Virus record (IMG/VR): IMGVR_UViG_3300021197_000485
Location: 259 to 64,258 of that record
Direction: 5' to 3' (one strand)
Source of the DNA: a virus
Taxonomy: Duplodnaviria; Caudoviricetes
Length of the DNA: 64,000 bases
The position numbers and the translations under genes were made by a program. The number at the start of each line of letters is the position of its first letter. The first letter of the stretch is position 1. A model generated the notes under the pieces. The model saw nothing but the letters and a program-made list of their open reading frames with translations, did not search any database and was not told where the DNA came from. Positions 4,783 to 62,104 of the stretch are shown here, piece after piece.

Positions 4783-5073
4783 ATGGAACGTGAACATGAC
4801 CAAGGTTATGGTGGCACTTTCAATGCACACAAACATTGGAAGAAGCTAAGAGAAAAACACAGGAAAGACGACGCTCACCGGGCAAGAGGTGGTAGTAGAA
4901 TTTGGAAGCCTGAAGTATACCGTTCAACTGGTGCTGGCAAAGGCGATGTTGAAAGAGAATCTAACGTACCCAAAGAACTCTATGATTTAAATTTTGATCT
5001 TGCTTTTGGTAATATTACACGGGAAGAGTACGAAACAAAACTTAAGGAACTTACTAGTGAAAACATGGAATAG
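4783..5073 (+). CDS. hypothetical protein upstream of RNAP
   Basis: AAGGAG SD; GAGKGD motif. Confidence 0.75.
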   Translation: MEREHDQGYGGTFNAHKHWKKLREKHRKDDAHRARGGSRIWKPEVYRSTGAGKGDVERESNVPKELYDLNFDLAFGNITREEYETKLKELTSENME

Positions 5074-7501
5074 TTTACCTGAGTCTGTACAATTAACAAA
5101 AATAGAATCCCAATATGATTATGAACGTAAGATGTTAGATTACGGTCGAGAAAGATATTGGCGTGACTATAACAGAGCACCCGACGAGGGTATCCCTGAA
5201 CAGGAGCTAATCGATTCTTCTGTTTTGGAACTCGAGTCTGTCTATCAGGAGTGGATTGATAATGTATGTCAGTCTACCAAGTCTCCTCAATGGTTGTACC
5301 CCCTGTTAGAGATAGGCGCTCGTAAGATGGCTGACATAACTATGCGTGCCGTCATTCGTAGCTGGTTCTCTAGTGGATTCTGGGGATACAGATGGAATGA
5401 AGAGCAACACACCCCTCCTCTGGCTCAATCCGTAGCTACTCAGATCGCACAGGATGCTTGTGACATCATGGGGTTTCAACGAGCTAAAGAAACTAAACGT
5501 GAAGACTGGATGCGACAGTCTAAGTTTATAAAGAACTGGACTACTAAAAGATGTAAGGCATTTGCATTAAAGATGGGTGAGAATATAAACCTGTCCATTA
5601 AACAGAAGCATGACTTTGGTCATCACATGTTGCGTATAGCCGCATGCTCTAACATTATCCTCCTTAATCCTAAGACTATTAAAAAGGGTAAGATGTTTAA
5701 GAAGTATACCTTTGTAGAAATACACGGAGATGTACTTAAAGAACTGCACCAACGCCATCAACTATTAGAAACATCCTCTCTTATCTATCGACCAATGCTT
5801 GCCCCTCCAGAAGAGCATACACTGATTGAATCAGGGGGGTATCAGACTATCACCATACGGAAACCCGTAGTACAGGGCTATCGATCCAACTTCTTTGGTG
5901 AGTACCCCAAATCCCAGAAGTTTTCCGAGCCTTCTCAATTGGTGCTGGATGGTTTAAATAATCAAATGAAAACCGAATGGACTATTAATGAGCCCGTGCT
6001 TGATGTCATGGAAACCATGTTTGAAAACAACAGTGGCCTAGCTAACCTCCCCTATTATTCCTTTGAAGAGTTCATGTTTAATGAGCCCTTCCCTAAAGGT
6101 GGGTCAAAAGAAGAGCAAGCCATTTGGTGCCAGAAACGTGAAGAGGCGTGGGGTGAGTGGTATAAGCAGGAGCAAGGCCGTGGCCGTATGCTGGTCAGGA
6201 TCAAGCTCGCTAAGGATCTTATCCCTCATAAGTTCTTCTATCACGTATACACCCTTGACTTTAGAGGCAGGTCTTACACCACCTGTGAGCTACTGTCACC
6301 GCAATCTTCTGACCTAGATCGAGGCTTGATCATGTTAAAGAATGGGCAGAAGCTGACTGAACGTGGCCGATACTGGCAAAAGATAAACTTAGCTAACCTA
6401 TTCGATCAAGATAAACTACCATTTAATTTAAGAATTGAGTGGGTAGATAACAACTGGGCTATGATTAAACGAATATCAGAAGACCCATATAGTAACAGGG
6501 AGTGGATTGACGATGCCAAGAAAAAGAATAAATCTTTTCAGCGTCTTGCTGCTGTTTTTGATATATGCCGGGATGACGGTTATAGCTACATTGCAACTAA
6601 CCTAGACGGTAAATGCAATGGTAACCAACATCTTAGTGCTATCATGGCTGACCCTATCATTGCTAAACTTACCGGCGTGAGTCCCTCACATACCCCAGAA
6701 GATTTATATCAACATGTTGCAGATGTAACTACAATGTATTGTACTGAACATCAGAATGAAAATGATTGGCATGTAGAGTTTCTTGATCATTGGGAATCAG
6801 AAATCCCTAGAAATGTAACCAAACGTTCTACTATGTGTGATGCGTATGGTCTTACATTTTATGGGATACAGAAATATCTTAAGGTTGAAGGACACTTAGA
6901 TTGGATAGCCAGAGAAAGAGTTGGTGGTGCTATTGTAGAGTTGGCGAGAGCTATACAAGCTAGCCTTAACTCTTCTCTTGTAGAGCCTAACAAAGCCAAG
7001 TCTTATTTAAAGTCAGTTACTTCTAAAGCAAACGAACTTAATAAACACTTAAGCTGGACTACACCCAGCGGATTTAAGGTAGTACATTACTACAACCAAG
7101 TACAAACTCGTCGTTCCTTAGCAAAATTGTTTAACAATAAGGAACTTACTTTCTTTGTGCGCACCTGTGATGTGGATACAAGAGGGGCAATACAAGCTAT
7201 CTCCCCTAACTTTGTACACTCATTAGATGCTGCACATATGTTTATGACTATAAAGGGGATGGCCTTGAAAGGTATTGAAGATTACTGTATGATACACGAC
7301 TCCTTTGGTTGTCACCCCAATCAAGTGGATGATATGCTTCTTTGTATTAAAGAAGAATTCTTAAAGATACATAGTGAAAATCAGTTGGAAAAATTTAAGA
7401 TAGAGATTGAACATCAATTAGGAATCCAACTGCCACCTATCCCTGAGAGGGGAAACTTAGATTTGTCCGGGGTACTAGAGTCCCAATACTTCTTCGCATA
7501 A
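5057..7501 (+). CDS. T7-type single-subunit DNA-directed RNA polymerase
   Basis: DFRGR, motif A LDGKCNGNQH, motif B RNVTKRSTMCDAYG, SPNFVHSLDAAH, motif C IHDSFG, C-terminal YFFA; probable GTG start 5057 after AAGGA. Confidence 0.97.
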   Translation: MKTWNSLPESVQLTKIESQYDYERKMLDYGRERYWRDYNRAPDEGIPEQELIDSSVLELESVYQEWIDNVCQSTKSPQWLYPLLEIGARKMADITMRAVIRSWFSSGFWGYRWNEEQHTPPLAQSVATQIAQDACDIMGFQRAKETKREDWMRQSKFIKNWTTKRCKAFALKMGENINLSIKQKHDFGHHMLRIAACSNIILLNPKTIKKGKMFKKYTFVEIHGDVLKELHQRHQLLETSSLIYRPMLAPPEEHTLIESGGYQTITIRKPVVQGYRSNFFGEYPKSQKFSEPSQLVLDGLNNQMKTEWTINEPVLDVMETMFENNSGLANLPYYSFEEFMFNEPFPKGGSKEEQAIWCQKREEAWGEWYKQEQGRGRMLVRIKLAKDLIPHKFFYHVYTLDFRGRSYTTCELLSPQSSDLDRGLIMLKNGQKLTERGRYWQKINLANLFDQDKLPFNLRIEWVDNNWAMIKRISEDPYSNREWIDDAKKKNKSFQRLAAVFDICRDDGYSYIATNLDGKCNGNQHLSAIMADPIIAKLTGVSPSHTPEDLYQHVADVTTMYCTEHQNENDWHVEFLDHWESEIPRNVTKRSTMCDAYGLTFYGIQKYLKVEGHLDWIARERVGGAIVELARAIQASLNSSLVEPNKAKSYLKSVTSKANELNKHLSWTTPSGFKVVHYYNQVQTRRSLAKLFNNKELTFFVRTCDVDTRGAIQAISPNFVHSLDAAHMFMTIKGMALKGIEDYCMIHDSFGCHPNQVDDMLLCIKEEFLKIHSENQLEKFKIEIEHQLGIQLPPIPERGNLDLSGVLESQYFFA

Positions 7502-7774: not shown

Positions 7775-8038
7775 TTGAAGAAGGAGATGGGATCTGTATT
7801 GATATACCAGATTCCTATTATGATGATGAAGATATCGATTGAGAGTGAGGGAGATCTTGAACTAGGTATTAAAACCATGTTAAGGTTAGCAGTATTAGAC
7901 GGTAAGAAAACCGTAATGCTTTGTTTCCCTAGTCAAGGGCTATGTCAAATCTTTTTCGAGAATGTACTCGAAACATTTGAGTTGTTAGATATAAAAGATC
8001 CCGTAAACATTGATGCTATTCTGGTCATGCCAGAATGA
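7775..8038 (+). CDS. hypothetical protein (paralog B)
   Basis: LCFPSQGLCQIF; start uncertain. Confidence 0.65.
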   Translation: MKKEMGSVLIYQIPIMMMKISIESEGDLELGIKTMLRLAVLDGKKTVMLCFPSQGLCQIFFENVLETFELLDIKDPVNIDAILVMPE

Positions 8039-8048
8039 GGAGTTAATT

Positions 8049-8711
8049 ATGAGTAGAGTATTAGTTATAGGTGACCTACACCTACCAGCAGAACGTGAGG
8101 ATTACCTCGAGTTTTGTAAACATCTAAAGAAAAAGTACAAGACAACTGAAACAGTTTTTATTGGTGATGTATTAGATCATCATGCTATTTCTTTTCACCA
8201 GAAGAATCCTGATGCTGACTCCGCAGTTGCAGAGTATCACAGGTCAATGGTGAACATGAAGGCTTGGAAGAAGTCGTTCCCTAATGCTAAGGTATGCATT
8301 GGTAATCATGACGAAAGAATCCAAAGACTGTCAGGCTCCGCTGGTATTCCAGCAATGTACTTAAAGGATTACTCAGAAATATTTGACACACCTAATTGGG
8401 AGTGGGGATATGAGTGGGTAATAGATAACGTTACGTACACCCATGGTACTGGTACTTCTTCAGGAAATACTCCGGCATTCAATGCCGCCAAGGTTAGAGC
8501 ACAGAGCACTGTCAGTGGACACGTTCACTCCGTAGCTTCAATCAATTGGATGCGTGGTCCTAATGGGCAAAAGATTTTTGGTTTTAATGTTCCCTGTGGG
8601 GTTGACATGCACCACAAATTAATGTATTATAGTAAGAACTTTCTAAAGAAGCCAGTCAACGGGGCTGGCGTAGTAATTGATGGACATCCTTACATGGAGA
8701 TTATGGACTAA
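8049..8711 (+). CDS. calcineurin-like metallophosphoesterase
   Basis: GDLH, GDVLD, GNHD, THG, GHVH motifs; GAGGAG SD. Confidence 0.92.
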   Translation: MSRVLVIGDLHLPAEREDYLEFCKHLKKKYKTTETVFIGDVLDHHAISFHQKNPDADSAVAEYHRSMVNMKAWKKSFPNAKVCIGNHDERIQRLSGSAGIPAMYLKDYSEIFDTPNWEWGYEWVIDNVTYTHGTGTSSGNTPAFNAAKVRAQSTVSGHVHSVASINWMRGPNGQKIFGFNVPCGVDMHHKLMYYSKNFLKKPVNGAGVVIDGHPYMEIMD

Positions 8712-8902
8712 TGGATGAACAGAACACACAAGTAGCAGCGGACCCGGATAGTATTTGGATTCCGCTCGAAGAAGTAGAGAAGTTTGTGGCACACATTCGT
8801 AATATGCTTGCCATGACAATTGATAGTATTGACAGCTCAATGGAAGCTGTAAAGAATCATGTTAACACAGAAGGAGATAATAATGATGACAACGAAGATT
8901 AA
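8711..8902 (+). CDS. small hypothetical protein
   Basis: Coupled TAATG start. Confidence 0.6.
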   Translation: MDEQNTQVAADPDSIWIPLEEVEKFVAHIRNMLAMTIDSIDSSMEAVKNHVNTEGDNNDDNED

Positions 8903-9407
8903 CCCTTTCACCACTGACACCCTTGAGGTTAAGTGGGCTCACCTCCACGCACCGGATGACAAGTTCGGAGCAGACTCAGCTAACCACAACATCACTGTTG
9001 TTGTTGACGAAGAGCTTCAGAAGAAGCTGGATCAACTGGTGCAAGAAAATGGCGCCACCAAAATCAACGGCCTTCGTACCGATGATGATGGCTTGGTTAC
9101 CCTTAAGGCAAAGTCAAAGACTTTTGTCAAGAAGGATGTTCGTGTATTCCCTTGTCGGGATGCTGGTGCTAGTCGCACTGAAGCAGTTCCGTTTGGTGGA
9201 GATGCAGTTCGCCTTCGCCTTGCCCCTGCGTTGCTTACGCGGGATGGCTCAATGAGCCTGTACTTGAATGGCGTTCAGATCATTACGAAGAACGCCTTCG
9301 AGGATAGCGGCTTCGAAGCCACCGATGGTTTCGATGGTTCTAACTTCATCCCTCCAACGGAGAAGAATGAAGAATCCGACGAAACCGTAGATGATATGCC
9401 ATTCTGA
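8883..9407 (+). CDS. ssDNA-binding protein (T7 gp2.5-like)
   Basis: WAHLHAPDDKF, LKAKSK, GGDAVRL, SLYLNGVQII, acidic tail ending in DDMPF. Confidence 0.88.
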   Translation: MMTTKINPFTTDTLEVKWAHLHAPDDKFGADSANHNITVVVDEELQKKLDQLVQENGATKINGLRTDDDGLVTLKAKSKTFVKKDVRVFPCRDAGASRTEAVPFGGDAVRLRLAPALLTRDGSMSLYLNGVQIITKNAFEDSGFEATDGFDGSNFIPPTEKNEESDETVDDMPF

Positions 9408-9790
9408 TGCCAGAGTGGCTATTCCCTCTTAGTCCTGTAGCAGCAAGTAGGCCCCGTGTTTCACGGCACGGGGCTTACTTTGCTGGCCCTTATAAATACT
9501 TCAGGGCTGAGTGTACCGAAGTTATTCCTCTAATTCTTGGGGATTCCTTTGAGCCATATGATGAACCTTTAAAGGTTGATGTTGAAATTTATGTTAAGCA
9601 ACCCAAGAAAACTAAATTACTCGTACCAAAAGCAGACATTGATAACTATCTTAAGGCTATCTTCGATGTGCTTAATGGTAAACTGTGGAGAGATGACACC
9701 TTAATTCATGAGGTCTATGCTGTTAAAAGCTGGGATCGCAAGGGTGGACATGGTTACTTTACTGTTGGAGTAGATCCGTTAGGCCAGTAG
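9407..9790 (+). CDS. rusA: RusA-family Holliday junction resolvase
   Basis: PVAASRPR, DIDNYLKAIFDVLNG...WRDD catalytic motif. Confidence 0.9.
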   Translation: MPEWLFPLSPVAASRPRVSRHGAYFAGPYKYFRAECTEVIPLILGDSFEPYDEPLKVDVEIYVKQPKKTKLLVPKADIDNYLKAIFDVLNGKLWRDDTLIHEVYAVKSWDRKGGHGYFTVGVDPLGQ

Positions 9791-9853
9791 CTCAGCGGTC
9801 AGAGCATGCGGCTCATAATCGCTTGGTCCCCGGTTCGAATCCGGGCTGGCCTA
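9781..9853 (+). tRNA. tRNA with CAT anticodon, probably tRNA-Ile2 (lysidine, reads ATA)
   Basis: Cloverleaf with AGGCCAG/CTGGCCT acceptor, CTCATAA loop, GGTTCGAATCC; CTCATAATCGCTTGGTC resembles bacterial Ile2; no encoded CCA. Confidence 0.88.
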
Positions 9854-9854
9854 C

Positions 9855-9916
9855 TATAAGAGTATGCGAACTGCTGCGACGGCGAAAGCCTTAGTGCTGG
9901 GGGACATGCTCTTATA
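9855..9916 (+). ncRNA. candidate structured RNA filling the tRNA spacer
   Basis: TATAAGAGTATG/CATGCTCTTATA closing stem with an internal GGC-GAAA-GCC hairpin. Confidence 0.4.
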
Positions 9917-9988
9917 CTCCGGTAGCTCAGGGGACAGAGCAACGGCCTTCTAAGCCGTGGGTCGTAGGTTCGAATCCTACTCGGAGTG
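9916..9988 (+). tRNA. tRNA-Arg(TCT)
   Basis: ACTCCGG/TCGGAGT acceptor, ACGGC-CTTCTAA-GCCGT anticodon arm, T-arm GTAGG-TTCGAAT-CCTAC. Confidence 0.93.
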
Positions 9989-9992
9989 CTTT

Positions 9993-10076
9993 GCCCTTGT
10001 GGCGGAACTGGCAGACGCGACAGACTTAAAATCTGTTTCCCGTTAGGGAGTATGGGTTCGAGTCCCATCGAGGGTA
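9993..10076 (+). tRNA. tRNA-Leu(TAA)
   Basis: GCCCTTG/CGAGGGT acceptor, ACAGA-CTTAAAA-TCTGT anticodon arm, long variable arm. Confidence 0.93.
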
Positions 10077-10094
10077 TTAAAGAAAGGAATTTAA

Positions 10095-10484
10095 ATGATT
10101 AAGTACTTGACAATCTTAGTGACTTCCCTTATACTATACGGATGTTCAACAACCAAGATGATAAACCCAACGACTGGCACATTGGAGGCAATGGCAACCG
10201 CTACTACAAGCGGCACTTGCTCCCCAATGCTCAGCTGGTTAGGTGGAGTATGCATCCTTGCAGGGATGGCACTTCTAGTTATATCGCGTGGCACGATGGG
10301 TTGGAGGCCACTTATTGGCGGAAGCGTTTTTCTGCTGATTAACTATGCAATTTCTTTATATGCTAGTTGGTTTTTTATACCAGTCGCTATATGTACCGGG
10401 GCATTGAGCCTCGCTTGGGCTGGTAAAGTTATTTGGAAAATTGTCAACGATGACAAAATTAAACTTAAGGAGCTTAAGTTATGA
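10095..10484 (+). CDS. putative lipoprotein / membrane protein
   Basis: Signal peptide with lipobox LYGC followed by about 3 hydrophobic helices. Confidence 0.7.
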   Translation: MIKYLTILVTSLILYGCSTTKMINPTTGTLEAMATATTSGTCSPMLSWLGGVCILAGMALLVISRGTMGWRPLIGGSVFLLINYAISLYASWFFIPVAICTGALSLAWAGKVIWKIVNDDKIKLKELKL

Positions 10485-10624
10485 TGGAATGGATTAACTC
10501 TGCGCTTGGTACTACGTTCTACAGTATTGTAGTATTTGTTGCTGGCGCTATGATTGGAGCACCTCTCTGGTGCTGGATGAAAAGCAAGTGTCCCTTTATG
10601 TCTAAGTGTGAGAAGTGTCACTAA
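10481..10624 (+). CDS. small membrane protein (47 aa)
   Basis: AAGGAG SD; MMEWINSALGTTFYSIVVFVAGAMIGAPLWCWMKSKCPF...; below the ORF-track cutoff. Confidence 0.65.
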   Translation: MMEWINSALGTTFYSIVVFVAGAMIGAPLWCWMKSKCPFMSKCEKCH

Positions 10625-10633
10625 GGAGTTTTA

Positions 10634-12355: not shown

Positions 12356-12999
12356 TAGTAGTAACCGGTGCAGGTAGGTGTGGGTCTAGTCTTATGATGC
12401 AGACCCTACACCTGCTTGGGGTTCCTATGATTGGGGATCCGGAAAAGGATCAAGGTCGTAATACTTTAATGAGCGAAGATTCTAGTGGAGAACTACGCAA
12501 ACAAATTATTAACATGAACCCTAAGGGTTACTGGGAACTTGCTATCAAAGACATCTATAATATGATAGACTTTGGTTGGCCCGACCATGAGGGTAAGGCT
12601 ATTAAAATAATGGGCGCTGCTTTCACAGAACTTAACACACCTGATATTGAAAAAGTTATTTATTGTAAGAGAAGAGATAGAGATGTGCAAGCAAGGGGGT
12701 TACATAAACTTTCACAGGTTGACTTACAAATTAAAGAGGAGACTAACTCTTCTAATGTGTATGTCAATTGGTTTAAGGGAAAGACAGTTGATGATGTTTA
12801 CTCAAGACAAGAGTTGACATTGAAGCATATTGATTATATAATTAAACACGATAAGATCCCGACCCTTAATGTTGTGTTTGAAGATATTGTAACCAATCCC
12901 ACGGTGGAGATTGAAAGAGTAGTCCAGTTTCTAAACTTAGATGTGGATATTTCTAAGGCTGTAAATAATGTGGATGTACGAAATGAGATTAGCGTTTGA
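12352..12999 (+). CDS. sulfotransferase-family protein
   Basis: N-terminal VTGAGRCGSSLMM (5'-PSB-like loop), NPKGYWE, C-terminal FEDIVTNP..EIERVVQFL. Confidence 0.75.
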   Translation: MIVVTGAGRCGSSLMMQTLHLLGVPMIGDPEKDQGRNTLMSEDSSGELRKQIINMNPKGYWELAIKDIYNMIDFGWPDHEGKAIKIMGAAFTELNTPDIEKVIYCKRRDRDVQARGLHKLSQVDLQIKEETNSSNVYVNWFKGKTVDDVYSRQELTLKHIDYIIKHDKIPTLNVVFEDIVTNPTVEIERVVQFLNLDVDISKAVNNVDVRNEISV

Positions 13000-16958: not shown

Positions 16959-16978
16959 AGTATAAAGGAGTAAGGTTA

Positions 16979-22117: not shown

Positions 22118-22132
22118 CTAAGGAGGCATTAA

Positions 22133-53400: not shown

Positions 53401-56400
53401 TGTTATGGAACGATGGGATTTATCAAGTCATTAAAAACGATCCTATGTATAGTCAATTTAAAAATGATAAGGGACTTACGTCTGATGATATGTCAGTGTT
53501 CCCCGAAGACATGAAAAAGGATTTATATGCTAAGGCTGGAGAATATGTAAAGAACATGAAGGGGTTTACTTTTGAAGCTAGAGTTACTGAAAAGGGTATT
53601 GATATCCTTGATCTTAACCCCCAACAAAACATTAATATGGAATTTAACAAGAATACATTTAAGGCTGTACAAAGAAATGCTTTAGCAGAAGCTGGATTTG
53701 GCTTAATGGTTATGGCTCCTAGTGAGCTTATAGGACAGAATGTAGAGCTGGTTATAACGCCCGAACGTGCAATGTTACTGTTGTCTTATCTTGAAAACTT
53801 TAGACTTGTAGAAAGAGTAGAGCAGTCAGCTCACACTCGTGTTCCTACGGGAACAAAGTTAGGAGAAGACGGTACTAGAATCCGTTCAAGAAGTGATGAA
53901 CAAATAGCACGAGATGCTTTAGCTCCTAATGAAACAGAAGTCCGTGAGGCTGCTATGATTGAAACAGATGCAGTTAAAAGAATTGTAAGTATGTTGGCAG
54001 ACAAGACTCCGCTATACACTGTTAATACGGGCGTGCGAAAAACAACTGTAATGGGAACAATGGAGTTTCTTAACAATGACTTGTATCGAAGACCGGGAAA
54101 TCTTTCAGAAGATGGTTCATCAAAGCATGGGTTTGTTGAGGATTATCTCGAAGCTTATATCTCTCCAATACAAAAACTACTGCATAACGTAGATAAAAAT
54201 CAAACAAATATTTTTGATCCATTACTTGTAAGCGAGTTAACCGATCTTATAGATAGCACGCGCAAGGGTACGAATAGTTTACATACTTCTACTTTAATCC
54301 AACTCTCTTTATTGTTACGAGAAACTAAAGTTACTGAGGATGTAGCTCAAGCATTTCTTGATCCTGATACTTACAACGAAACTGATATTACCACAGGATG
54401 GCAAAGAGCCAAAGACTTGGTGCAGCGCGTGTCTGCAATACGAGAAGCAGGGGGCAGAGGTCATTTCTTTAATACACAAAGAGGTAGGGATCTTACAAGA
54501 ATTTACCAAGAAGGACTTGCTAACCTTCCGGGTGTGACAAACGAAACAAGTCTAACAGAGATTAAACGGCATTTAGAACAATACGCAGCTAGTGTATTAC
54601 ATCAAGACTCTCCCCATAAGGGGCGAGGGGAAGCTCCTACTAGGTTAAAGGGGTTTACCAAAGAAGAGATTAACGGAGTCTTTGAATATGCTATGGGAGA
54701 AGCATATACCTTTGAAGCCTTGAATGATGTAATGGGTATTGAAGGTGATATTGCTAACACTGTTTCAGAAGAAGCGGTTGACTTTTCTATTAATGATCAA
54801 TTAGGATTTAATTTTGATACTGCCGGTAAACAAATTAAAAACATTGTTAAGACCCATAAGGATACAATAGACTGGGCAAAGGGTACTAGAAATAACCATG
54901 TGTTATCTATGTTACATACAATCGAAGAAGCTGTACAAAATGATAAAATTAACTTAAGTCCTAAGGAAGCTCAAATAATGCGGGCTATTATTGTTCGTCA
55001 GTACGAAAGAAATAAATCTTTATTGGATGATATCTCTTTAACATTTGAGGAAAGATTCCCATCTCAAGCAATTATTAATGGCCGGTCTGCATCAATTATT
55101 ATGAACACTGAAGAAATGAAGGGTACTCCATTAACCGCAGTTAAAATTTTTGCTCATGAGTTAGCTCATATTGGAGCTACTCGTTTCCTTTCGACTAAGG
55201 ATGGACTAACATGGCTTGCACTATACAGAAGTAAAGCAGGTAAAGCTTACTTAAGAAAGACTGTGCAAGCATGGCATGGCGGTAGATTTAATCAAGATGC
55301 TAAAAAAGAATTTAAAAGATATTTAACAAACCCCGATGAGTTTATAGCGGGGCTTGTTAGCTACAAATTATTTAATGGGGCTCTGCCAGAAATTCCTAAC
55401 TTAACTATTCCTGAAGCTAAGGTTTGGAACACAGCAACGAATAATGTTCAGAAGATTATACATTGGTTTGCAGGACATTGGAATAGAATTAATACTGTGT
55501 TTGTACATTTCCGTAAGGGAAATCCTGAATTATCTAAACAGATTGATACACTTACTCTACATACGATGGGGTATGATCCTATGGATGGACCACTTGTTCG
55601 ATTAGATAATGATTCTACACAGGAAAGATTTGGGTTTAATAGTATTAATAGACGTTTTGAAAAGATGAGTGATAGCTGGGAGATGTCTACCGCAGACCTT
55701 TCTAATACTCTAACAGAGTTTGAAACTTTAAATGCTATGGAATCATTAGATCAGAAGCAGCAAATACGATTAGCTGAAACGGCAAATATATTATTTGAGG
55801 GTGAGGGGCGTAAGCCTTATGGTGTAACTGGTATTACTCGCACAAGAAAACTACAAGAAGAAAGAAATCTTAAAGAGTTTATGCATGACAAGGATGTCTT
55901 TAGTGTTGACTTGTATAAGTTACTTAATACTGCTAATCCAAATGGCATTCATGCTAACCCTGCTCAAAGAGCAACGGTTGTTGAAATGGCTATTGATAAG
56001 ATGGAAGAACAATATGGAGAAGCTTTTAGAGGACATGCTGGTAGTTTCCTTAGTAAACAAGTTAACTCATTACATAATATGCTGGGTTCGGAAAACAAGG
56101 GAACCGCTTTAAGTCTGGGAGAAGATTTCTTAACGGGTCCTGCTGCCAGTAGATTAACATATAACGGATGGCATCCTCTTATGGTTTCCATGTCGGCAAT
56201 GGTAGATGATCGGGTCGCAATGATGATGGGGCAGTATGCAAACATTAATGGCCTTCCATCAGTGACTAAGGCTCTTGGTGAAATCAGAGGCATCTCTACA
56301 ATTCTTAAGGAACATCGTAGAAGAATGACTAGTATCTTTGGAAACTTAGCATTTGAATTAAGCGGAAAAACCGCAGGATTATTAAGAACTCCAGAGAGAG

Positions 56401-59400
56401 AATACTTGTCACACTTAGATGCACAGATTATGTTAAAGATAGATAACCCTACTCATGAATTTGATTTTGATGTAGATGATAATAAGATGTTTGAAAAGCT
56501 TAAGCCAGACCAACAAGAATCTATTAAGGACAGTATGGATAAATCTGTCACAGCTTTATCATCATATCTAAAGCAGTTAGTTAAGGACGGAGTGTCTGAT
56601 GGGTCATTTGGTGAGGGGTTTACCGCTGTTGTTCCTTACCGCCTCAATAATACTATTAGAGTAGAAGACACTAGAGTTAATTTTAAAAGAGAACTTGGTA
56701 ATGAAATTAAATTACAGATTGTGAATGAACTTAATAATAGCGACACATCTATTGAACGTATCGATCCCCTTGTATTCTTTGGTACAAAATCATTACCTCG
56801 AATTCATAATAAGGATACTTTACGTACTGACTTAATGAAAATGAGAGAAGCAAACCCTCCTTTATATAACTGGGTTATGCAGAAGTTTACTGCCAAGAGA
56901 GAAAAACAAAAGGGGGGATCAGTAAAGATTTCTTCGGAAAGTTTACGACTAACGTTAGAAGAAGAGCTGAGTATTCCTAAGATAGGAGAAACCGGAAAAC
57001 GGGATGCTAATACTATGGATGAAAATGCTATAGCTATGGTACAGTCTCAATGGTCGCAAATTCTTAAAGATATTTCAAGAGGTAAGATTAAGTGGAGTGA
57101 GTTAGCTAAGGTAGGCGTAGATGTAAATGCGCTTAAGGTTGTATACGAAAACACCATTGAAAGTAAGGATCCAGAGGTAAGGAATTACATGGAGTCTTTA
57201 CGGGTTGAAGGTATAAAGGCTTATGTTCCTCAGTTTATTTATTACCGATCACGCGGAGATATTAATTCTAAGTTTGTTACCCTTGATGAAAACTCAACCC
57301 CCATTGATATGCATATTCACAATCTTGCAAATCGTGCTGCTGTTGGTATGTATTTCCCTAACGATATCTGGAGCATTCCACAGGTTAGTTCTGTACTGGA
57401 AAACAATATCCTAAAGGATTTATTTATTTGGAATCCTACTGAAATTACAGAGGAATTCCGTAAGGGTCTTGGAGACGAAATTCACGAAAGAAAGATGATG
57501 AGGGAAAACTTTAACCTTCACGGAACATTTGGAGACTTTGTTAATTTAGTTTCAGATGTTATTCATGAGCCTCCCTCAGGAGCTTTACGGAGACCGGATG
57601 GGACAGAAATGTCTCAGAAGGAAATGAAAGAACTTTCTCGGTCAGCTCAGGTCTTACACTCTAAGTGGGAAATGACAAAGGGAATCGCAAGACGTACTGA
57701 AAGCCCGAGTCCTTTCATGAATGCAATTGCCGACTACGCTCCCGCTATTACTCGAATTGTATTTGGTAATAACTTATCCTTAGCCTCAGCTATTGTTGAA
57801 GGGGGTATTAATGTATTGAGCGAAGGTCTTGGTAGAGGAAACTTAAGTGGATCTATCAGAGGATTGCTTGCACCTATTTTAAATATTCCTATAGTCAATA
57901 AGGAATTACGAAGACGAGTGGGAGCAGACATTGCATATCATGTAGAATCTTTAACGCAAAGCTTTATTCCAGATTTTGAAAAACCTGCTAATTCAGAAGC
58001 AGACAGTGCGTTGTTAAAGGCAATGAACTGGTCGGGTAGACAATCACTGCGCCCCGCTCAGTGGACTATGACTAGCATTGCTTCTCAAAGAGCAGTAAGT
58101 ACTCGTTTGTTTATTACGGATAATTTAGATAACCTTACAACGTTAGTGAGAAACATTGAAGAGACTCCGTTAGATATGACAAACCCAAAAGATTTTAAGG
58201 CAAGGATGAGAGAGGCTGGCTTTAATATGACAGCAGTCTTAGAACAAGATCTTAATCTTGTGCGGTATATGTTAAATGCAGGGCTGCTTAGCTCCGGACG
58301 TTTCCCGCAAATGAAACGAATGATACGAGATTTCTTAAAACGAAACCCCGGAGAACGTTATTATGTTATCAATGAAATGCATAGTAGAGTTCTTTTAGAC
58401 GATCCTAATCAAGCTGACTATAGAACTAATACTGATATTATTGTGGGACTTAGGGAAGTAGAGAAATCGTTTATTCACGAAGTGATTCTTGAGCCTAAGG
58501 CATTTGATATCTTTACTGGTAACCCCGGTTCAACAGGAGAAGGGGCAAGTATCAGCCCCCTTGATTCGTTATTTGAAATCTTTAGGCGGCACCCCATTCT
58601 TTTTGTATCTCAACATGTATTCCGAGGAATGAATGAGAAGCACCCCTTGAAGTGGGGATTTGGATTAACCAGCCTTCTTGTTTTAGATATTGTATATATG
58701 TTAGCCCTACGTATGTCTCAGGGAGAAAACCCCGAGGATTTACTGGATGACTTAGATAATAACAAATTTAAAAATATAGTTATGTATATGTCTCGTCTCC
58801 CTATCCTTGGTCGTTGGGGTTCTGAAATTGCAGGCATGGTTGGAGGAGTCCTCACTGGCTTTGGCGCACAGCCCGCTGGTAGGTTTATTGGAGCAGCAGC
58901 TTTAATTACTGCGATTAATCAACTTTACAAGGCAGGCAAGGGACTAGCTACAGGTAGTGAATACGCAATACAAGATATGATTAATGCCTTTAGAATCATA
59001 CCAGTCCTTGGAGACTCAGTGATCCGTACAGGCTTGTACACGGGACTTAATATGCTAGGCGACCCCTATGACATTCCTAGGCGCAAACGTCGCTCAGGAG
59101 GCGGAGGAGGCGGCTACGGACAAAGCGGGGGCTCTGTAGGAAACTACGGAATTAATACATTTGATTCTCCCCTGACCTATGAAGGATACTTAGGCGGACT
59201 TGCAGCAGAGCTTACGCAGTACGCTCCATTACCTCAACGTATGCAGCAGCAGATTTCTAATTTAGCTCCACCTTGGACGGGAGGACAGAATGCTTGGAAT
59301 GCCACAAGAAACCAAGAACGAGACTCGTATATGGATATGGTGGAGAATCAAGAACGCACAGAGTTGCAGGATCAGTACGATAGAGATGCAGGGGTTGATC

Positions 59401-59510
59401 GCAGCATAGATGTTGAACGTGAAACAGAAGGCCCCGGTACTATTGAAGATAAGATTAGAGCACAAAAGGGAAGCAGTGGAGATCTGGCGGATACCCTAGG
59501 AATCGACTAG
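44472..59510 (+). CDS. giant polyvalent virion protein with putative RNA polymerase domain and two zincin motifs
   Basis: 5012 aa, AAGGAG SD; DQQFSG (aa 2090), REYFKVPTMRRDYEG (aa 2202), LDMPHM (aa 2437), HNSDAFG (D2539); HEVGH (aa 1160), HELAH (aa 3562); hydrophobic segments near both ends as in gp16-type ejection proteins. Confidence 0.75.
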   Translation: MPDRTWHTNPVPLRSSPAMYLNMSNKEVAAGKELIESTPWYTPQFQDTWQAGAVETINVASQMVPNSADMSNSIEAMGEALHSDNAWEYLNRDQMNEATMFVDPYAPGEWVRGLYSAWDATAEQMQQDYHRGYLSRNMPHEVWAGKAMVGGRDLEAMKGTILDFDDDAENFLKDRMTSSKWNTKFWEDGRLPIYNLLLETPEDLLTIEPPEGWDAIDAMKFFKEKDPDAFKRYSLALGGEQALIDITKDSRNQYEFFYRLGESLTLSTVGKSLAVAQRNWSSMDHIGHFVGTLGVHGILNDPDMMASMALSIALAIPTGTGSLAMGAIALGAKAATIANRGVRLAKYANPVIMGLGKSVNFTRKLQHWLPENIGPHLMKNILFNGKRFTAYKNLSGMKKVGVVTMGNVIEGAVTGSLAEVANQYQKTSRGVTDEWNWGVVGMGTLHEMGLSIVVNPIMGRAFRGLGWAASLGGTAAVRSMRPLGLGKYVDGLLEGVKSSLDPNATARNVAVVQSMMTLREGLSGLGLEEVSSQVGTIMNVLAANTDLDEVGIAKVLGDSVTPFINSTGAHTNPELTFIEAIVKNEAFANVDNAFKASLEGKIKLAAHIKTQAENRNQTIDEFLADNENKPEVLLGIDLLPEFNALREQAGGTPKWNAMNRDEKMVEIGKFLFEAAERENEITQTITKEVKEGAEDAGVPTNTFGGATPGEVIALGKNAAEKKLADERKKAKAAQDQNKTKPKTDKARKARAKRTNDINKNIEKLENFLGSLEEMENLNKSGALPTHLVEQLNSLIKQEARVRRKLDEIFTHKDFIRREGWKTLAGVFEDVFKLTGITEEKIPLSQLATPESIAALDSIIENFRDKPQDFISFRNKLEKFEAGNLDVNALQERLDKVNSELGIEENKQDALQEVFDQQKDIMAMLESPAMKAIMIENQAEAQGMIVGRDAMDENRRIIASTDAADLHPTFEEWKSSVKKRYDPDNNLTMEEVLKEAEIQTEEEWAAHTEQQIEEFIEGPVRHIVRRGLEQGWRPVASNAFNAGKKGVWFKVDDLDIFEPLMVNVDGIFFDANFNIDEIAMMRTLPSLQTAPNKRRKINKIILKEKLIVGTIETPDSLVSLGKANTAEGTIELNEDRLLVSEELVGKTKAREMEALANTFGHEVGHFQFNKLSKKQLSEFKKLTAGWFSPSAQNELNAGVIKTEEQIDNENFAEIWAEILDKPKFTSIFTTHPLPGGAKNEADIRAFIKKEFQDKAEANGPNRFRDRPPTRRGSVLIPTPEDFTELGKVIGKLKDRIEVIKKHINAPKHPGGTDNEDLREESVNKAELESLEFRLLDLYSSRDEIWKKSGLADEIKEESAKLEKDRIQYELDRNEHFRGTLADRNMWFAQLESVRNLLTTKKNLKAMLSVREQAFEAVVQESIDNQVPLIKGDLVNFLPMDSRVAKKWQASIEKNAEYANQQMTVQAARDVSKKAFAAARKTVNRLNVGDFDTSNMVYPPTPRMFNTSPLLNETADEDLLLVPINEDYLTSPRMEDVEAIQNTEEELKAFISLARQLENVSDSTHIDQFSTIHAARIYSAMFEGTNDYFFRVGMAPHVVFREAINSPDIVSSLESTFNTQFESLTEAQLRTEATNLRYKIDKVKRIAEERADAIRAKTEGWVKEPWTQHLDRLLTNLTTEGKKESLHDHYRVLNLLEAMESLQKTAMEDLFRVNKGYALELNDTTGKPSKTTSEFSVFKSAVMKSALDRYNDARMKGEFDALGIDRFQKNLNLTEDDFLYQEHAIGKVDDFDYAESIVTEVINNRLSSLREDFTLQSFGDGTLDYRDAKTLGEEIVDLVFRDKPYPGRNSLESVDGGALDSTELYRGEQESTSTRRPHWGEGTAYAPMPFWTFAGMVGEYKFRSRASHVLNTPLTEEGLKAAAEWRKTLKEHANPDVAGAGLPLTVRPRAVGATLSSQVMSRPVLKDFLLELFLDMPNIAHSFISDQETVSSETKMFKYDENFVSAFPRVDQTPTGSTQHMIGSGEDLIVPFGQMGNTFALELMNPELEGLGQLIIDKNQEAVEKGKAAWMAQNPDKEFTLLDLFDPVTTTDQQFSGRYVGKMLALAADPQGRAAVKNIFKELKNNPEAWGVKSEEDLYIVSGLLMASEFSKAENQNKADIQTLGKLGSVFESVKDLKTLDDWNAAYAAMEEGSIGRKRLDALREYFKVPTMRRDYEGGEVAFLKDFDSERGNEIEVLRDLADAYDLERFTQSEIEALARLTYNKELRQNEALIDYALMMSGREKDLALQYLRLDSSSSFEANFWKEMVVPAVRGPGVVIPKTNPIFSLDTHRQALDNVILDWTVKTYGQENVTDTNIAKVRKKYDKVISEAKLFLQARKDDGLPTLEPGTTDFETYQLILHGQVDAKGNEIKGSAGLSYRDIGFFRALNMYNSTAYKLDMPHMEEVSELLGFKEFNAKDWLGLENHLLYQLFLPTQKSHRTSPVFGGMGMNSMGIVLERVASNKQGFKDFMTEAMANITEPSTLDYAFKAGEYITQHNSDAFGMFDIVDNPYVKMSKIEADAKVDEIMTLHEMLYYAQEDKLPKDIYPNYTVEDDPNAMLAATLTQWKDNSIEMQELLPEIIDFERKLYDQGDAGKAILKLKKKANVIYNPTVARDLQVPERHFFSREGKKGELYADTVQSPAGIQTSSPAGPLAMMPLTKRYSIMDKGNIPFQRIALQRQIDRRRNWLNVRLDQQLVEETPLLKGTEFGYVSPYNKGDLPQMLDVPEDLLAVIPDNEVGREASRIYTKVSTWVKNRGIDEAVLQDPHMWPYLLNVIKVETLQSELITQMSYQSRRSGDTSRQRKTVDHWRQQWLTSLFELSNVSYDIQNSKRRGASLEEAALRIGIKDPDVLGKSYYDIFTRNRKRSKEASEKNREGYLLIDTLLQQSLEAGVVPGAEGMTIRNKFTGANEGFVINPTQLVANSKQAHDFMKFMVKMLWNDGIYQVIKNDPMYSQFKNDKGLTSDDMSVFPEDMKKDLYAKAGEYVKNMKGFTFEARVTEKGIDILDLNPQQNINMEFNKNTFKAVQRNALAEAGFGLMVMAPSELIGQNVELVITPERAMLLLSYLENFRLVERVEQSAHTRVPTGTKLGEDGTRIRSRSDEQIARDALAPNETEVREAAMIETDAVKRIVSMLADKTPLYTVNTGVRKTTVMGTMEFLNNDLYRRPGNLSEDGSSKHGFVEDYLEAYISPIQKLLHNVDKNQTNIFDPLLVSELTDLIDSTRKGTNSLHTSTLIQLSLLLRETKVTEDVAQAFLDPDTYNETDITTGWQRAKDLVQRVSAIREAGGRGHFFNTQRGRDLTRIYQEGLANLPGVTNETSLTEIKRHLEQYAASVLHQDSPHKGRGEAPTRLKGFTKEEINGVFEYAMGEAYTFEALNDVMGIEGDIANTVSEEAVDFSINDQLGFNFDTAGKQIKNIVKTHKDTIDWAKGTRNNHVLSMLHTIEEAVQNDKINLSPKEAQIMRAIIVRQYERNKSLLDDISLTFEERFPSQAIINGRSASIIMNTEEMKGTPLTAVKIFAHELAHIGATRFLSTKDGLTWLALYRSKAGKAYLRKTVQAWHGGRFNQDAKKEFKRYLTNPDEFIAGLVSYKLFNGALPEIPNLTIPEAKVWNTATNNVQKIIHWFAGHWNRINTVFVHFRKGNPELSKQIDTLTLHTMGYDPMDGPLVRLDNDSTQERFGFNSINRRFEKMSDSWEMSTADLSNTLTEFETLNAMESLDQKQQIRLAETANILFEGEGRKPYGVTGITRTRKLQEERNLKEFMHDKDVFSVDLYKLLNTANPNGIHANPAQRATVVEMAIDKMEEQYGEAFRGHAGSFLSKQVNSLHNMLGSENKGTALSLGEDFLTGPAASRLTYNGWHPLMVSMSAMVDDRVAMMMGQYANINGLPSVTKALGEIRGISTILKEHRRRMTSIFGNLAFELSGKTAGLLRTPEREYLSHLDAQIMLKIDNPTHEFDFDVDDNKMFEKLKPDQQESIKDSMDKSVTALSSYLKQLVKDGVSDGSFGEGFTAVVPYRLNNTIRVEDTRVNFKRELGNEIKLQIVNELNNSDTSIERIDPLVFFGTKSLPRIHNKDTLRTDLMKMREANPPLYNWVMQKFTAKREKQKGGSVKISSESLRLTLEEELSIPKIGETGKRDANTMDENAIAMVQSQWSQILKDISRGKIKWSELAKVGVDVNALKVVYENTIESKDPEVRNYMESLRVEGIKAYVPQFIYYRSRGDINSKFVTLDENSTPIDMHIHNLANRAAVGMYFPNDIWSIPQVSSVLENNILKDLFIWNPTEITEEFRKGLGDEIHERKMMRENFNLHGTFGDFVNLVSDVIHEPPSGALRRPDGTEMSQKEMKELSRSAQVLHSKWEMTKGIARRTESPSPFMNAIADYAPAITRIVFGNNLSLASAIVEGGINVLSEGLGRGNLSGSIRGLLAPILNIPIVNKELRRRVGADIAYHVESLTQSFIPDFEKPANSEADSALLKAMNWSGRQSLRPAQWTMTSIASQRAVSTRLFITDNLDNLTTLVRNIEETPLDMTNPKDFKARMREAGFNMTAVLEQDLNLVRYMLNAGLLSSGRFPQMKRMIRDFLKRNPGERYYVINEMHSRVLLDDPNQADYRTNTDIIVGLREVEKSFIHEVILEPKAFDIFTGNPGSTGEGASISPLDSLFEIFRRHPILFVSQHVFRGMNEKHPLKWGFGLTSLLVLDIVYMLALRMSQGENPEDLLDDLDNNKFKNIVMYMSRLPILGRWGSEIAGMVGGVLTGFGAQPAGRFIGAAALITAINQLYKAGKGLATGSEYAIQDMINAFRIIPVLGDSVIRTGLYTGLNMLGDPYDIPRRKRRSGGGGGGYGQSGGSVGNYGINTFDSPLTYEGYLGGLAAELTQYAPLPQRMQQQISNLAPPWTGGQNAWNATRNQERDSYMDMVENQERTELQDQYDRDAGVDRSIDVERETEGPGTIEDKIRAQKGSSGDLADTLGID

Positions 59511-59623
59511 GGGGTCACGAATTTGTCTGGGTGGAGGGGTAGGATGCCGTTACCAGCATCCCCCCCTTACCCCTATGCCGATGGGGGGTCTACCATCGGC
59601 TACCAACTACACGGAGGTGTAGC

Positions 59624-59878
59624 ATGTCTAATGCTAACATCAACCCGGCAGACGCTCCTTCTGAGTTCAAGTGCGGTCATTGTCCCAAAACAATGACACA
59701 GCGTGAGGTCAGAGCGATGTGTACTGACGAATCCGATGAGCCCGCTTATCTTATCTGTTCTAGTTGCATCGAGCAATTGAATCAGGAGAATGAGCTGGTG
59801 ATCGAAAGCGAAACTCCCTTGGTCATTCATGGTCAAGGAGCGTACGCTGTTAAGATCATGCCATCGGATATCAGCTGA
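59624..59878 (+). CDS. small Zn-finger protein
   Basis: GGAGGT SD; CGHC...CSSC. Confidence 0.65.
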   Translation: MSNANINPADAPSEFKCGHCPKTMTQREVRAMCTDESDEPAYLICSSCIEQLNQENELVIESETPLVIHGQGAYAVKIMPSDIS

Positions 59879-60178
59879 CTGCTGACAATCTCAACGATGC
59901 TCTCTCAAAGTGAGAGGGTATCTATTGGGATTCTCATCCCAGCTGGGCATTGAGCCCAGCGTGAGAACCTTGTGTGATCAAGGAAGAGTGATCACAAGGA
60001 AGGGTGCAGACGCCACCGTAGGCGTTTCACTAGCATCCCTCCGCAACATAGGGAGCTTTACCGCTCACGATTCACCGCTGTGAAGCTGGTGGCTATCTTA
60101 CTCCCAATGGGAGTCTACCTTGTATCCTAACATCGTGTTAGGATAAACCTTCTAGTTCTACAGACTTAGGATAACTTT

Positions 60179-62104
60179 ATGCACCCTAAAGTGTACAAAG
60201 AAATCAAAGCTCTGGCGGACAACCTCATGCCTCACCAAAGGAATATGTCACCCATCGCTGCGGCGATTGACGTGGTCCTTGAAGGATGGCTGGAGTTGCA
60301 GCTCCATAATGGTCGGGATCTTCCCGGTCTTATTGAGCGATTCCGCGGAGCCATCATTCTCTTGGCTAACTTCATCTCTGTTACAGAGCGTGGAGGAAAG
60401 CCTGTTGACATCAAGGATGTTCATGAGCAGTTGTTCGCAACTCTCTACAACCATCCCATGATCACGCAGGTATCCAAGAAGGATCCCTTCTCTCGTGAGC
60501 CTGTCTCTAACTCAGGTCTGTCCAAGATGACGATGCTTCGGCTTCCCATCCTGTCCAACTTGATTGGCGATAGGCGAGTAGAAACGTGTGAGATGATGTC
60601 ATCCTCCCCACTCTTCTTTAACGGAAGAGCTACGGAGAGGATGCTGGAGTATCGTAACTCTCTGCCTGAAAAGGTTCTGCGAGGTACGAATGCTGCCCTC
60701 TTCCCACAAGAACAGTTCTTCCCCAATTCATTGGTGGAGAGCTTCTACTCGTATGGCGAGTCTGCGGTTTACATGGATCACCACACCACTGACCGTGGTG
60801 CGGGCAGAACCTTTCCTCGTAACGGTAACTGTACTCTGACAGGGCCAAGGATCAACTTGGCTGTGATGGGGTACGAACCATACGAGGTTACGGATTCCAT
60901 GAGACCTCGACTCGTGCGACATCTCAAGCAGGCCTACGGCATCACGCCCAAGGACTGTGAGAGAATCGCCGTTGACTGGAAGGACTACCTCCGAAATGAT
61001 GGAGATCCTGATGTTGTACGCATTGCGTGTGACGTTGATGATCTTCTGTCAGGTCGTACTAACAAGATGTCAACCATCTTGGAGTGCGATATGCCGTCTT
61101 GCGGCATCATGGATGGTGCAGCTCTTGCTCGACATGCCCGGTTTAACGTTCTGTTTAACATGGCGGACTCAGAGTGGAGACACTGTCGGCATATCATGTC
61201 TGACTTTCTCGGAGATCCCACCAGTCTGGGTGGTGGTATTCGGTTCCTTGTGGATCGAAACTACGCCACTCATGGGAAAGATCTGGACTCCTTCCTCGCA
61301 CGTAGTGTGTGTTCGGAGGAGGAAGGAATGCTTAAGAGCGGCATGTCACCGGTTAACTACGGTGCCATGGAAAAGACTCTTGCGTGTGCATTCCTTGATC
61401 TGGAAGCTGATGGAGAGGAGTTGATTGGGAGTGATCCCAAACCTTCTTCACTCCTGATGGCTCAACTTGACCGCCGTGGTCTTAGCTTGTCTTCGCAAGG
61501 GGACAAGGAAGAAGCGGTTAAGTGGGTGACTCAGAATGTTGCACGTCCTTTCTTGGGCGTGTATCGTCAGCAGTTTCCTTGGGCTCCCAGTAACCACGCT
61601 CACATGATGCGTTGGTATGCTTCAGAGTTTGCCTCTGCTATGGCAAACGATGGCTACCCCAGCGTGTCGCTTGTGGAGTGGGCTGGCGCTCATGTCGTTG
61701 TGCCTCATTACTATGAGGGCAAGAAACGAACGCTGACCATTCGCATCCCCAAGCCGGGAGGGTTCGGTCCAAAAGCCGGATCCGCCACGGTTCAGGTTAC
61801 TCCGTACACAGAAGATCCGGAAGGATACGGCTGTGCTACGAAGTTCCTGTTCTTTGCAGACGGAACTAAGATGGCTGATTGCCAGCTTAGTCTGCACAAG
61901 AAGGGTTTCCAGAGCGAGCAGAAGTTCGACTGCGTTCTGGTAGGGGCTAACGCCCTTGGTGAGGTTAACTCTTCCATGCTGGATGCTCACCGCATTCTTC
62001 ATGGAGAGGATGTCCTGTCCAAGTTGACAGGGCAGAGAACTCAGGGTACTACCCTGAACTTCTCAGACGATGTTGTATGCATTCGCTGCGGCGAAGACAT
62101 CTGA
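60179..62104 (+). CDS. divergent single-subunit RNA polymerase-like protein
   Basis: DRGAGR, ECDMPSCGI (motif A), KSGMSPVNYG (motif B), WAGAHVVVPHY, FLFFADG, KFDC (motif C), colinear with T7 RNAP. Confidence 0.7.
   Translation: MHPKVYKEIKALADNLMPHQRNMSPIAAAIDVVLEGWLELQLHNGRDLPGLIERFRGAIILLANFISVTERGGKPVDIKDVHEQLFATLYNHPMITQVSKKDPFSREPVSNSGLSKMTMLRLPILSNLIGDRRVETCEMMSSSPLFFNGRATERMLEYRNSLPEKVLRGTNAALFPQEQFFPNSLVESFYSYGESAVYMDHHTTDRGAGRTFPRNGNCTLTGPRINLAVMGYEPYEVTDSMRPRLVRHLKQAYGITPKDCERIAVDWKDYLRNDGDPDVVRIACDVDDLLSGRTNKMSTILECDMPSCGIMDGAALARHARFNVLFNMADSEWRHCRHIMSDFLGDPTSLGGGIRFLVDRNYATHGKDLDSFLARSVCSEEEGMLKSGMSPVNYGAMEKTLACAFLDLEADGEELIGSDPKPSSLLMAQLDRRGLSLSSQGDKEEAVKWVTQNVARPFLGVYRQQFPWAPSNHAHMMRWYASEFASAMANDGYPSVSLVEWAGAHVVVPHYYEGKKRTLTIRIPKPGGFGPKAGSATVQVTPYTEDPEGYGCATKFLFFADGTKMADCQLSLHKKGFQSEQKFDCVLVGANALGEVNSSMLDAHRILHGEDVLSKLTGQRTQGTTLNFSDDVVCIRCGEDI

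Follow-up and report, generated by a model that had tools for sequence, protein, structure and literature searches.

The IMG/VR record IMGVR_UViG_3300021197_000485 is a genome assembled as one contig of 64,258 bp, and the stretch of DNA analysed here (the window, 64,000 nucleotides, to which all positions refer) comprises its bases 259–64,258, that is, almost all of it. Judged by its gene content, the window is a near-complete genome of a marine T7-like podophage, which is placed as deep-branching because its portal protein and its RNA polymerase (RNAP) are only 26–32% identical to those of cultured Autographiviridae (31–32% for the portal). Single-subunit RNAPs are biotechnology workhorses and a textbook case of polymerase evolution, and to our knowledge few deep lineages of them are known, namely the T7-like and mitochondrial enzymes, the N4 RNAP II and the N4 virion RNAP (vRNAP). 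A first-pass annotation had assigned such a polymerase to each of the following three open reading frames (ORFs):

4994–7501, plus strand: RNAP1, T7-type single-subunit RNA polymerase, 835 aa from TTG at 4994 or 814 aa from the in-frame GTG at 5057

44472–59510, plus strand: 5012-aa ORF, candidate ejected internal virion protein (by position akin to IVP-D, short for internal virion protein D), with an HExxH motif at residues 3562–3566 and hydrophobic segments at residues 312–330 and 4728–4749

60179–62104, plus strand: 641-aa putative divergent single-subunit RNAP homologue (P0002), N-terminally truncated, with R210, D304 (motif A), K386/Y394/G395 (motif B), D561 and D584 (motif C)

We consider it likely that the phage encodes two members of the single-subunit RNAP superfamily and not three, namely RNAP1 and a diverged 641-aa polymerase that lies in an added module, the 5012-aa giant being an ejected virion protein.

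RNAP1 is by all sequence comparisons a genuine T7-type RNA polymerase and a full member of the Pfam family PF00940 (RNA_pol), which it matches with an E-value of 2.3e-73 (248 bits, cut-off 22). It also matches phrog_414 (E 6.6e-154, residues 36–835 covered) and, in hhalign, a T7-like profile of eight sequences consisting of T7 (GenBank record), RNAP1 itself and six Autographiviridae RNAPs (8e-210, spanning T7 residues 7–883). When aligned with T7 and the six other phage RNAPs, it keeps D421, R425, D537, R627, K631, Y639, G640, H784, D787, H811 and D812, and its best cultured relatives are 26–29% identical. The canonical T7 RNAP that had been noted at 5057–7501 is thus borne out by Pfam, by phrog_414 and by a complete set of catalytic residues, the ORF being able to start at 4994. 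By analogy with T7, RNAP1 would do the T7-type job and transcribe the replication and virion genes.

The 641-aa protein, taken singly, has no match in Pfam, PHROGs or the PDB sequences (phmmer), and tblastn against 50,697 phage records gave none at E ≤ 10. Four relatives with 43–58% identity were retrieved by a word-indexed search of 5.8 billion proteins, and an exhaustive profile hidden Markov model search of 1.84 billion cluster representatives yielded five clusters at E ≤ 0.001, including three distant ones at E ~1e-6, which hhalign shows to be homologous to the close set over their full length (3.7e-24, 505 columns). The resulting eight-sequence alignment of the family is referred to as A2 and that of the close clade alone as A1. 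IMG/VR scans with P0002, P0011, P0012, P0013 and the query A5 found no relatives, and neither did a scan of 185,579 bacterial and archaeal genomes (GTDB) with A1. A2 matches the T7-like profile: hhalign aligns A2 195–617 with T7 412–846 over 383 columns with a probability of 77.9 and an E-value of 1.8e-5, and after realignment of A2 by L-INS-i the E-value is 1.5e-5 over 383–384 columns. All 40 column-shuffled versions of A2 gave E-values of at least 0.033 (best score 28.3 versus 53.9 for the real alignment), the reversed A2 gave 0.18, and the 20 decoys, all window ORFs of at least 200 aa, gave P-values of at least 0.084 against the RNAP profile. The register places R210 on T7 R425, D304 on D537, K386 on K631, Y394 on Y639, D561 on D787 and D584 on D812, and six of the 18 invariant columns of A2 sit on T7 hallmark residues, counting G309 (T7 G542). 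Further signals point the same way. A2 has three weak colinear matches in motif register to an N4-like vRNAP profile (E 0.02, 0.05 and 0.19), and the distant member P0012 matches phrog_414 'RNA polymerase' with an E-value of 0.0015, alone among the four members scanned against PHROGs (P0002 and P0011–P0013). For a low-confidence ESM Atlas model of the exact 641-aa protein, the 30 nearest models, grouped into one row for each set of Pfam families, make up five listed neighbour rows, every one of them a PF00940 cluster, with TM scores of 0.43–0.47 over ~400 residues. In a scored colinear-motif test, RNAP1 reached a z of 8.3, N4 gp15 plus gp16 5.6 and the 641-aa ORF 4.2. Hence, the colinear RNAP motifs that the first-pass annotation had seen in this ORF are present, and the profile–profile E-value together with the shuffled, reversed and decoy controls places them beyond chance.

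Several observations weigh against this assignment. PF00940 is matched by none of the five family members scanned (P0002, P0007 and P0011–P0013), hhalign against the RNAP profiles gives no signal for the 641-aa protein alone (P 0.64) or for its five close homologues alone (P 0.28), the hhalign probability of A2 is only 78%, and the Atlas model is poor, with a predicted local distance difference test score (pLDDT) of 0.49. With both sides considered, the 641-aa protein is very probably a member of the single-subunit RNAP superfamily. A profile search of the PDB with A2 listed 29 matches, all of which are spurious, namely 27 TAL-effector-type repeat chains and two chains of the 92-residue protein P57 (E 0.08–0.1); RNAP chains are absent among the listed matches. 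The TAL-type matches were rejected as a repeat artefact because one 26-residue stretch (profile 249–275) is summed over the repeats, each with an E-value above 1000. The stretch corresponds to P0002 residues ~245–270 (window 60911–60988) and resembles a single TAL-effector-type repeat.

The likeness of the 641-aa family to T7 and the Autographiviridae RNAPs (PF00940) consists of five elements, DxxxR, motif A, motif B, HxxDG and motif C, which follow one another as they do in T7 and at comparable distances (94/90/167/23 residues versus 112/102/148/25 in T7). In A2, the first element reads D-x3-R-x-[YF], with one additional residue in the window's clade (R210; the T7 counterpart is DWRGRVY), followed by D304-x3-[SC]-G-[IYF] for motif A (T7 D537, GSCSGI), K/R-x7-Y394-G for motif B (T7 K631, RSVMTLAYG), [HF]-x2-D561-G-[ST] (T7 H784, SQDGS) and [HF]-D584 for motif C (T7 H811-D812). 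D304 and D584 are invariant in all eight sequences and aligned to T7 D537 and D812, Y394, R210 and D561 are likewise invariant and G395 is found in seven of the eight, in a family whose members are otherwise 17–60% identical. A global hhalign alignment places the 641-aa protein on T7 264–880, and it therefore appears to lack the T7 N-terminal promoter-binding domain (~260 residues). It would thus be a second, extremely diverged polymerase made up of thumb, palm and fingers, as in T7 ~264–880. Since both catalytic Asp residues, the motif-B Tyr-Gly and the DxxGR arginine are kept, the protein most likely makes RNA, and we put the chance that it is an active transcriptase at somewhat better than even. 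Speaking against retained activity, the position of T7 R627 is basic in just two of the eight sequences and has no conserved counterpart, that of K631 is basic (K or R) in five of eight and reads K, K, Q, R and S within the close clade, and the window's clade has Phe in place of both H784 and H811, so that catalysis may be altered or lost.

The 641-aa protein differs from T7 RNAP by the ~260 missing N-terminal residues, the absence of a conserved R627 and the Phe residues in place of H784 and H811, and the similarity of its family to T7 RNAP is reached just by profile–profile comparison (E 1.8e-5), below the Pfam and PHROG thresholds. A close parallel in architecture is the N4 RNAP II (gp15 plus gp16), likewise a T7-family polymerase pared down to a minimum by the absence of the N-terminal domain. 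The two are similar in size (269 + 404 = 673 aa versus 641 aa), and the N4 enzyme, too, is the second, non-virion polymerase of a podophage. In contrast to the 641-aa protein, the N4 enzyme is split over two genes and is readily recognized as T7-like in the same hhalign test (gp15 3e-8, gp16 1.4e-14). The 641-aa family shows no direct similarity to gp15 or gp16, and A1 produced no hhalign match with either N4 gp16 or RNAP1. According to a passage in PMC4496689, N4 RNAP II lacks an N-terminal promoter-binding domain and requires cofactors and single-stranded DNA. In its divergence from T7 RNAP, the 641-aa family is comparable with the N4 vRNAP (1.8e-5 versus 2e-6 for a nine-sequence vRNAP profile in the same set-up). 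Unlike the N4 vRNAP (gp50), the 641-aa protein is a small, free-standing polypeptide encoded within a non-structural module.

The 641-aa gene is flanked by a series of signals and small ORFs:

59527–59574, plus strand: G/C-rich hairpin directly after the stop codon of the giant gene, with invariant columns in all four sequences of alignment A4

59624–59878, plus strand: 84-aa CxxC...CxxC ORF, zinc-ribbon-like, conserved in the related locus L003

59870–60178, plus strand: structured leader of ~300 nt before the 641-aa gene, a chain of hairpins conserved at the DNA level

62124–62152, plus strand: terminator-like hairpin with an 11-bp stem, 20 nt past the stop codon of the 641-aa gene (DNA conserved over 62133–62239)

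62265–62858, plus strand: conserved ORF in the frame of a listed 262-aa ORF (62070–62858), its start probably past the hairpin (tblastx with L003: 55% over 174 aa)

63023–63165, plus strand: repeat cluster of three exact TACCTATAGT copies and then an AT-rich stretch, exact copies occurring nowhere else in the window

The hairpin at 59527–59574 is likely a terminator or a late-operon boundary signal. The 84-aa ORF is swapped for an unrelated sequence in a 99%-identical contig (L002), so that a small variable island lies between the giant gene and the leader. In the leader, all six tblastx frames are conserved, and it is kept even in the relative with 43% protein identity; 15 of the 89 pairs of its predicted fold, which includes an invariant 35-nt imperfect palindrome, show a compensatory change. 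It matches no Rfam family and has no sigma-70-like site, and a sigma-70 scan of 59.3–64 kb found two sites versus 4.0 expected. The leader may act as a structured RNA, or its hairpins may serve as signals in the DNA. The ORF at 62265–62858 matches nothing in Pfam or PHROGs. Successive TACCTATAGT copies start at intervals of 57 and 29 nt, and the cluster is a candidate for a set of tandem phage promoters or a replication origin. In the primary origin of T7, an AT-rich region follows two phage promoters.

The region around the 641-aa gene stands out in composition. GC content climbs from ~0.39–0.41 to 0.50–0.55 at ~58.8 kb, within the last 230 codons of the giant gene, and stays high through to the end (~0.52 for the module), while GC content at third codon positions (GC3) is 0.56 for the 641-aa gene and 0.56–0.65 across 58800–64000 versus 0.30–0.40 elsewhere. 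In all four related metagenome loci (L002–L005), the giant C-terminus is followed by the intergenic region and then by the 641-aa homologue, as in the window; one of them is related at 99% DNA identity (L002), two at 58% and one at 43% protein identity. Contigs assembled from runs of two studies bridge the junction (58,074–63,796; 58,536–63,369; 46,000–63,737). In addition, a 643-aa homologue (P0021) and a 5081-aa homologue of the giant each lie on a 64,164-bp contig, most likely the same one, and a homologue from a distant cluster lies 2 kb short of where a contig of 63,486 bp, which holds P0014, ends. The contig of a further relative measures 65,045 bp. A chimeric join at 59.5–64 kb, which the first-pass annotation had named as a point to check, is ruled out by the independent bridging contigs and by the order kept in diverged relatives, and the 58.8–64 kb module is a stable, compositionally foreign part of this phage group. 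Two side observations concern the module. A contig covering 58.1–63.8 kb has ~2x the depth of its neighbours (13–14 versus 5–8) in two viral-metagenome runs, and the module may be common to several co-occurring genotypes or terminally redundant. Separately, a 28,298-base contig of another genome from the same run (run X2, record 3) matches a stretch of 24 nt directly past the stop codon of the giant (59531) and resumes at 63629. It may come from a co-occurring relative without the 4.1-kb cassette that holds the 641-aa gene; one side of the match is short and the evidence thin.

The giant ORF is real and has two long relatives, one of 5081 aa and a 3715-aa piece; shorter homologues were not found, and its residues 2013–5012 have no match in the phage records. 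At 5012 aa, it is among the largest phage proteins without an assigned family. The genome lacks homologues of gp14–16 between tail tube B and the fibre, and four ORFs without a family (272, 342, 1438 and 5012 aa) follow the terminase. Because gp14–16 are missing from their usual place, ORFs of rising size lie past the terminase, hydrophobic segments occur near both ends of the giant and IVP-D proteins provide a precedent for carrying cargo, the giant is most likely an ejected internal virion protein with a role like that of T7 gp16 (IVP-D). In passages of Hardies et al. 2016 (PMC4819975), IVP-D homologues are described to carry cargo domains, the N4 vRNAP among them. The giant resembles T7 gp16 in closing a series of large late genes without an assigned family, in its size, its hydrophobic segments and the cargo precedent. 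It differs in that no sequence similarity was found, in that the genes lie past the terminase and not between tail tube B and the fibre, and in length (T7 gp16 has 1318 aa, the giant ~4x as many). Weighing against a virion protein, this reading derives from position, and hhalign of the giant against T7 gp13–16, the N4 gp50 termini, gp51 and gp52 gave nothing. An HExxH motif at residues 3562–3566 (window 55155–55169, context [IV]FAHE[LI][AV]H[IV]GAT) is the sole short catalytic-type motif common to all three homologues and may mark a zincin-type peptidase domain; another HExxH, at residue 1160, was dropped as it is not conserved.

The first-pass annotation had also reported RNAP motifs A, B and C inside the giant, which would give the phage three single-subunit RNAPs, an injected N4-like vRNAP within the 5012-aa protein acting before a mini-RNAP (the 641-aa protein) and finally the T7-type RNAP. 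That more than one polymerase sits on the T7-type chassis stands, in the form of RNAP1 and the 641-aa protein, but the third is unsupported by any test run, and we regard the three-polymerase scheme as quite improbable. It is true that the size and position of the giant suit an ejected protein, that the N4 vRNAP is embedded in an IVP-D homologue according to the same passages of PMC4819975, and that the hairpins of the leader at 59870–60178 recall the N4 hairpin promoters. The strings D2866, K2972-K2976-Y2984 and D3249 are moreover spaced by 118 and 265 residues versus 119 and 273 in N4, and the best BLASTP segment between the giant and N4 gp50 lands on the N4 motif-C residue Asp1948, with an E-value of 0.33. 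However, the giant scanned in pieces has no Pfam or PHROG match, and no PDB match was found by sequence or profile. In hhalign against the T7-like and N4-like vRNAP profiles, the giant family, as a whole and in nine overlapping 1200-residue tiles, gave P-values of at least 0.28 throughout, and in the scored four-motif colinear test with permitted spacing, the giant reached a z of 1.8 and its homologue P0009 one of 0.6, at unrelated positions. The sequence blocks of the mini-vRNAP domain, defined from nine vRNAPs as TxxGR..NPQ, DGxTNG, RxxxKNP..YG and [FH]D[GA], were not found in the giant, nor was there a profile hit. The strings listed above were therefore rejected, as they lack the conserved vRNAP neighbours (DGxTNG, KNPLT..YGS, NPQ), and such strings are expected by chance in a protein of 5012 residues; conservation along the protein is lowest around residue 3249, the supposed motif C (0.31 identity), and no copy of a DxDxD motif is conserved in the family. 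The giant thus resembles N4 gp50 only as a huge late podophage gene, with none of the conserved vRNAP blocks. What tempers this negative is its power: the alignment holds three sequences (effective number of sequences 1.4) so that an RNAP domain with the divergence of the 641-aa protein would probably go unnoticed, just as that protein's five close homologues, taken alone, gave no signal (P 0.28).

A different possibility is that the 641-aa protein derives from an RNAP and is no longer a general transcriptase, serving instead as a primer-maker for an origin at 63.0–63.2 kb, as a DNA-entry or DNA-binding factor, or persisting as an inactive relic. The phage already has a complete polymerase in RNAP1, the O-helix basic residues (T7 R627 and K631) are not conserved, H784 and H811 are replaced in the window's clade, and the gene lies beside three TACCTATAGT copies and an AT-rich stretch in an arrangement that resembles the T7 primary origin. 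Against it, the conservation of both catalytic Asp residues, Y394-G395 and R210 over eight such dissimilar sequences argues for retained catalysis, and lineages with as little as 43% identity still have the gene beside that of the giant; we hold a non-transcriptase to be unlikely, while giving it appreciable weight. Far less probable, and largely refuted, is that the 641-aa ORF is unrelated to RNAPs and carries chance motifs, or that 59.5–64 kb is an assembly chimera or host DNA. Such an explanation could draw on the absence of a direct database match for the single protein, on the sharp shift in GC and GC3, and on a contig that starts with a sequence like a tRNA 3' end and has no terminal repeat. 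It is at odds with the profile–profile E-values of 1.5–1.8e-5, the clean shuffled, reversed and decoy controls and the exact register on six hallmark residues, and also with a junction that is bridged by contigs of two studies and kept in four of four related loci, the lack of any relative in the 185,579 bacterial and archaeal genomes and a tRNA-like end without a second copy.

Returning to two polymerases as the favoured reading, we propose that the 641-aa polymerase would have a specialized task, either the transcription of a separate class of genes or transcription-primed replication at the repeat cluster. This is suggested because its gene lies in a compositionally distinct 4–5 kb module after the giant gene, between the hairpin leader and the TACCTATAGT copies with their AT-rich stretch. 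Our preferred guess is that the second polymerase may read the leader or TACCTATAGT signals, for a separate gene class or for replication priming. Weighing against the favoured reading, k-mer and pairwise comparisons of the intergenic DNA revealed for neither polymerase a promoter consensus that recurs across the genome. In a bolder version, to which we give a little less than an even chance, the 641-aa protein would found a third deep phage lineage of single-subunit RNAPs, as remote from T7 as the N4 vRNAP, without a promoter-binding domain and active. Marine T7-like phages of 63–65 kb would then run a two-polymerase programme in which this mini-RNAP reads the hairpin leader or the TACCTATAGT repeats, for example to start infection or to prime replication, with a cryptic polymerase in the giant possible besides.

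What would be new here is a deep branch of single-subunit RNAPs, as far as sequence can tell, within a T7-like genome with an added module. A full-text literature search of partial coverage turned up no description of the 641-aa family, nor of any T7-like phage that carries another single-subunit RNAP besides its T7-type one. If the assignment is true, the 641-aa enzyme would be a new minimal scaffold, in which the catalytic core is kept, the promoter-binding domain lost and the nucleoside triphosphate-binding helix rebuilt, and it may recognize its promoter or template in a new mode. The picture of how T7-like phages schedule their transcription would change as well.

The remainder of the genome is a T7-like chassis:

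8010–18889, plus strand: T7-like DNA metabolism block, by PHROG matches, including three tRNAs at 9781–10077

20115–37824, plus strand: T7-like virion block from portal to large terminase, by PHROG matches, with the fibre by a sub-cut-off Pfam match

37923–44427, plus strand: ORFs of 272, 342 and 1438 aa, candidates for internal virion proteins, judging only from their position and increasing size

The plus strand carries 27 of the 29 ORFs of at least 150 aa, the two on the minus strand being nested within larger plus-strand genes, and 15 of the 20 larger ORFs scanned match PHROG families in the order known from T7. Named after these families, the genes run from metallophosphoesterase, gp2.5-like single-stranded DNA-binding protein, primase-helicase, DNA polymerase, deoxynucleoside monophosphate kinase, exonuclease and ribonucleotide reductase to portal, scaffold, major capsid, tail tube A, tail tube B and large terminase. 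Tail tube B and the terminase are separated by a 1633-aa fibre, which has a weak match, below the cut-off, to Pfam Phage_T7_tail (the N-terminal domain of the T7 tail fibre). The ORFs of 272, 342 and 1438 aa have no PHROG or Pfam family and no similarity to T7 gp13–16 or N4 gp50–52. The T7-type structural and replication chassis described in the first-pass annotation is confirmed by this order and by the nearly uniform strand, and the layout is that of the Autographiviridae, with an own T7-type RNAP, one coding strand and the succession of RNAP, replication genes, portal, capsid, tail tubes A and B, fibre and terminase. The genome differs from this type by its size of 64 kb and by the four large extra genes and the 4–5 kb module past the terminase. 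A scan with Rfam found the three tRNAs only. The source runs, which belong to 11 studies, are metagenomes of seawater and of marine viruses, and none of the 20 runs listed as holding the genome contains RNA data. The ends of the genome show neither a terminal repeat nor an overlap, and joining them does not yield a tRNA. Just ahead of the window, bases 1–23 of the contig resemble the T-arm and acceptor at a tRNA gene's 3' end, of which a second copy is absent from the contig, and this start may be an attP-like core or an assembly break.

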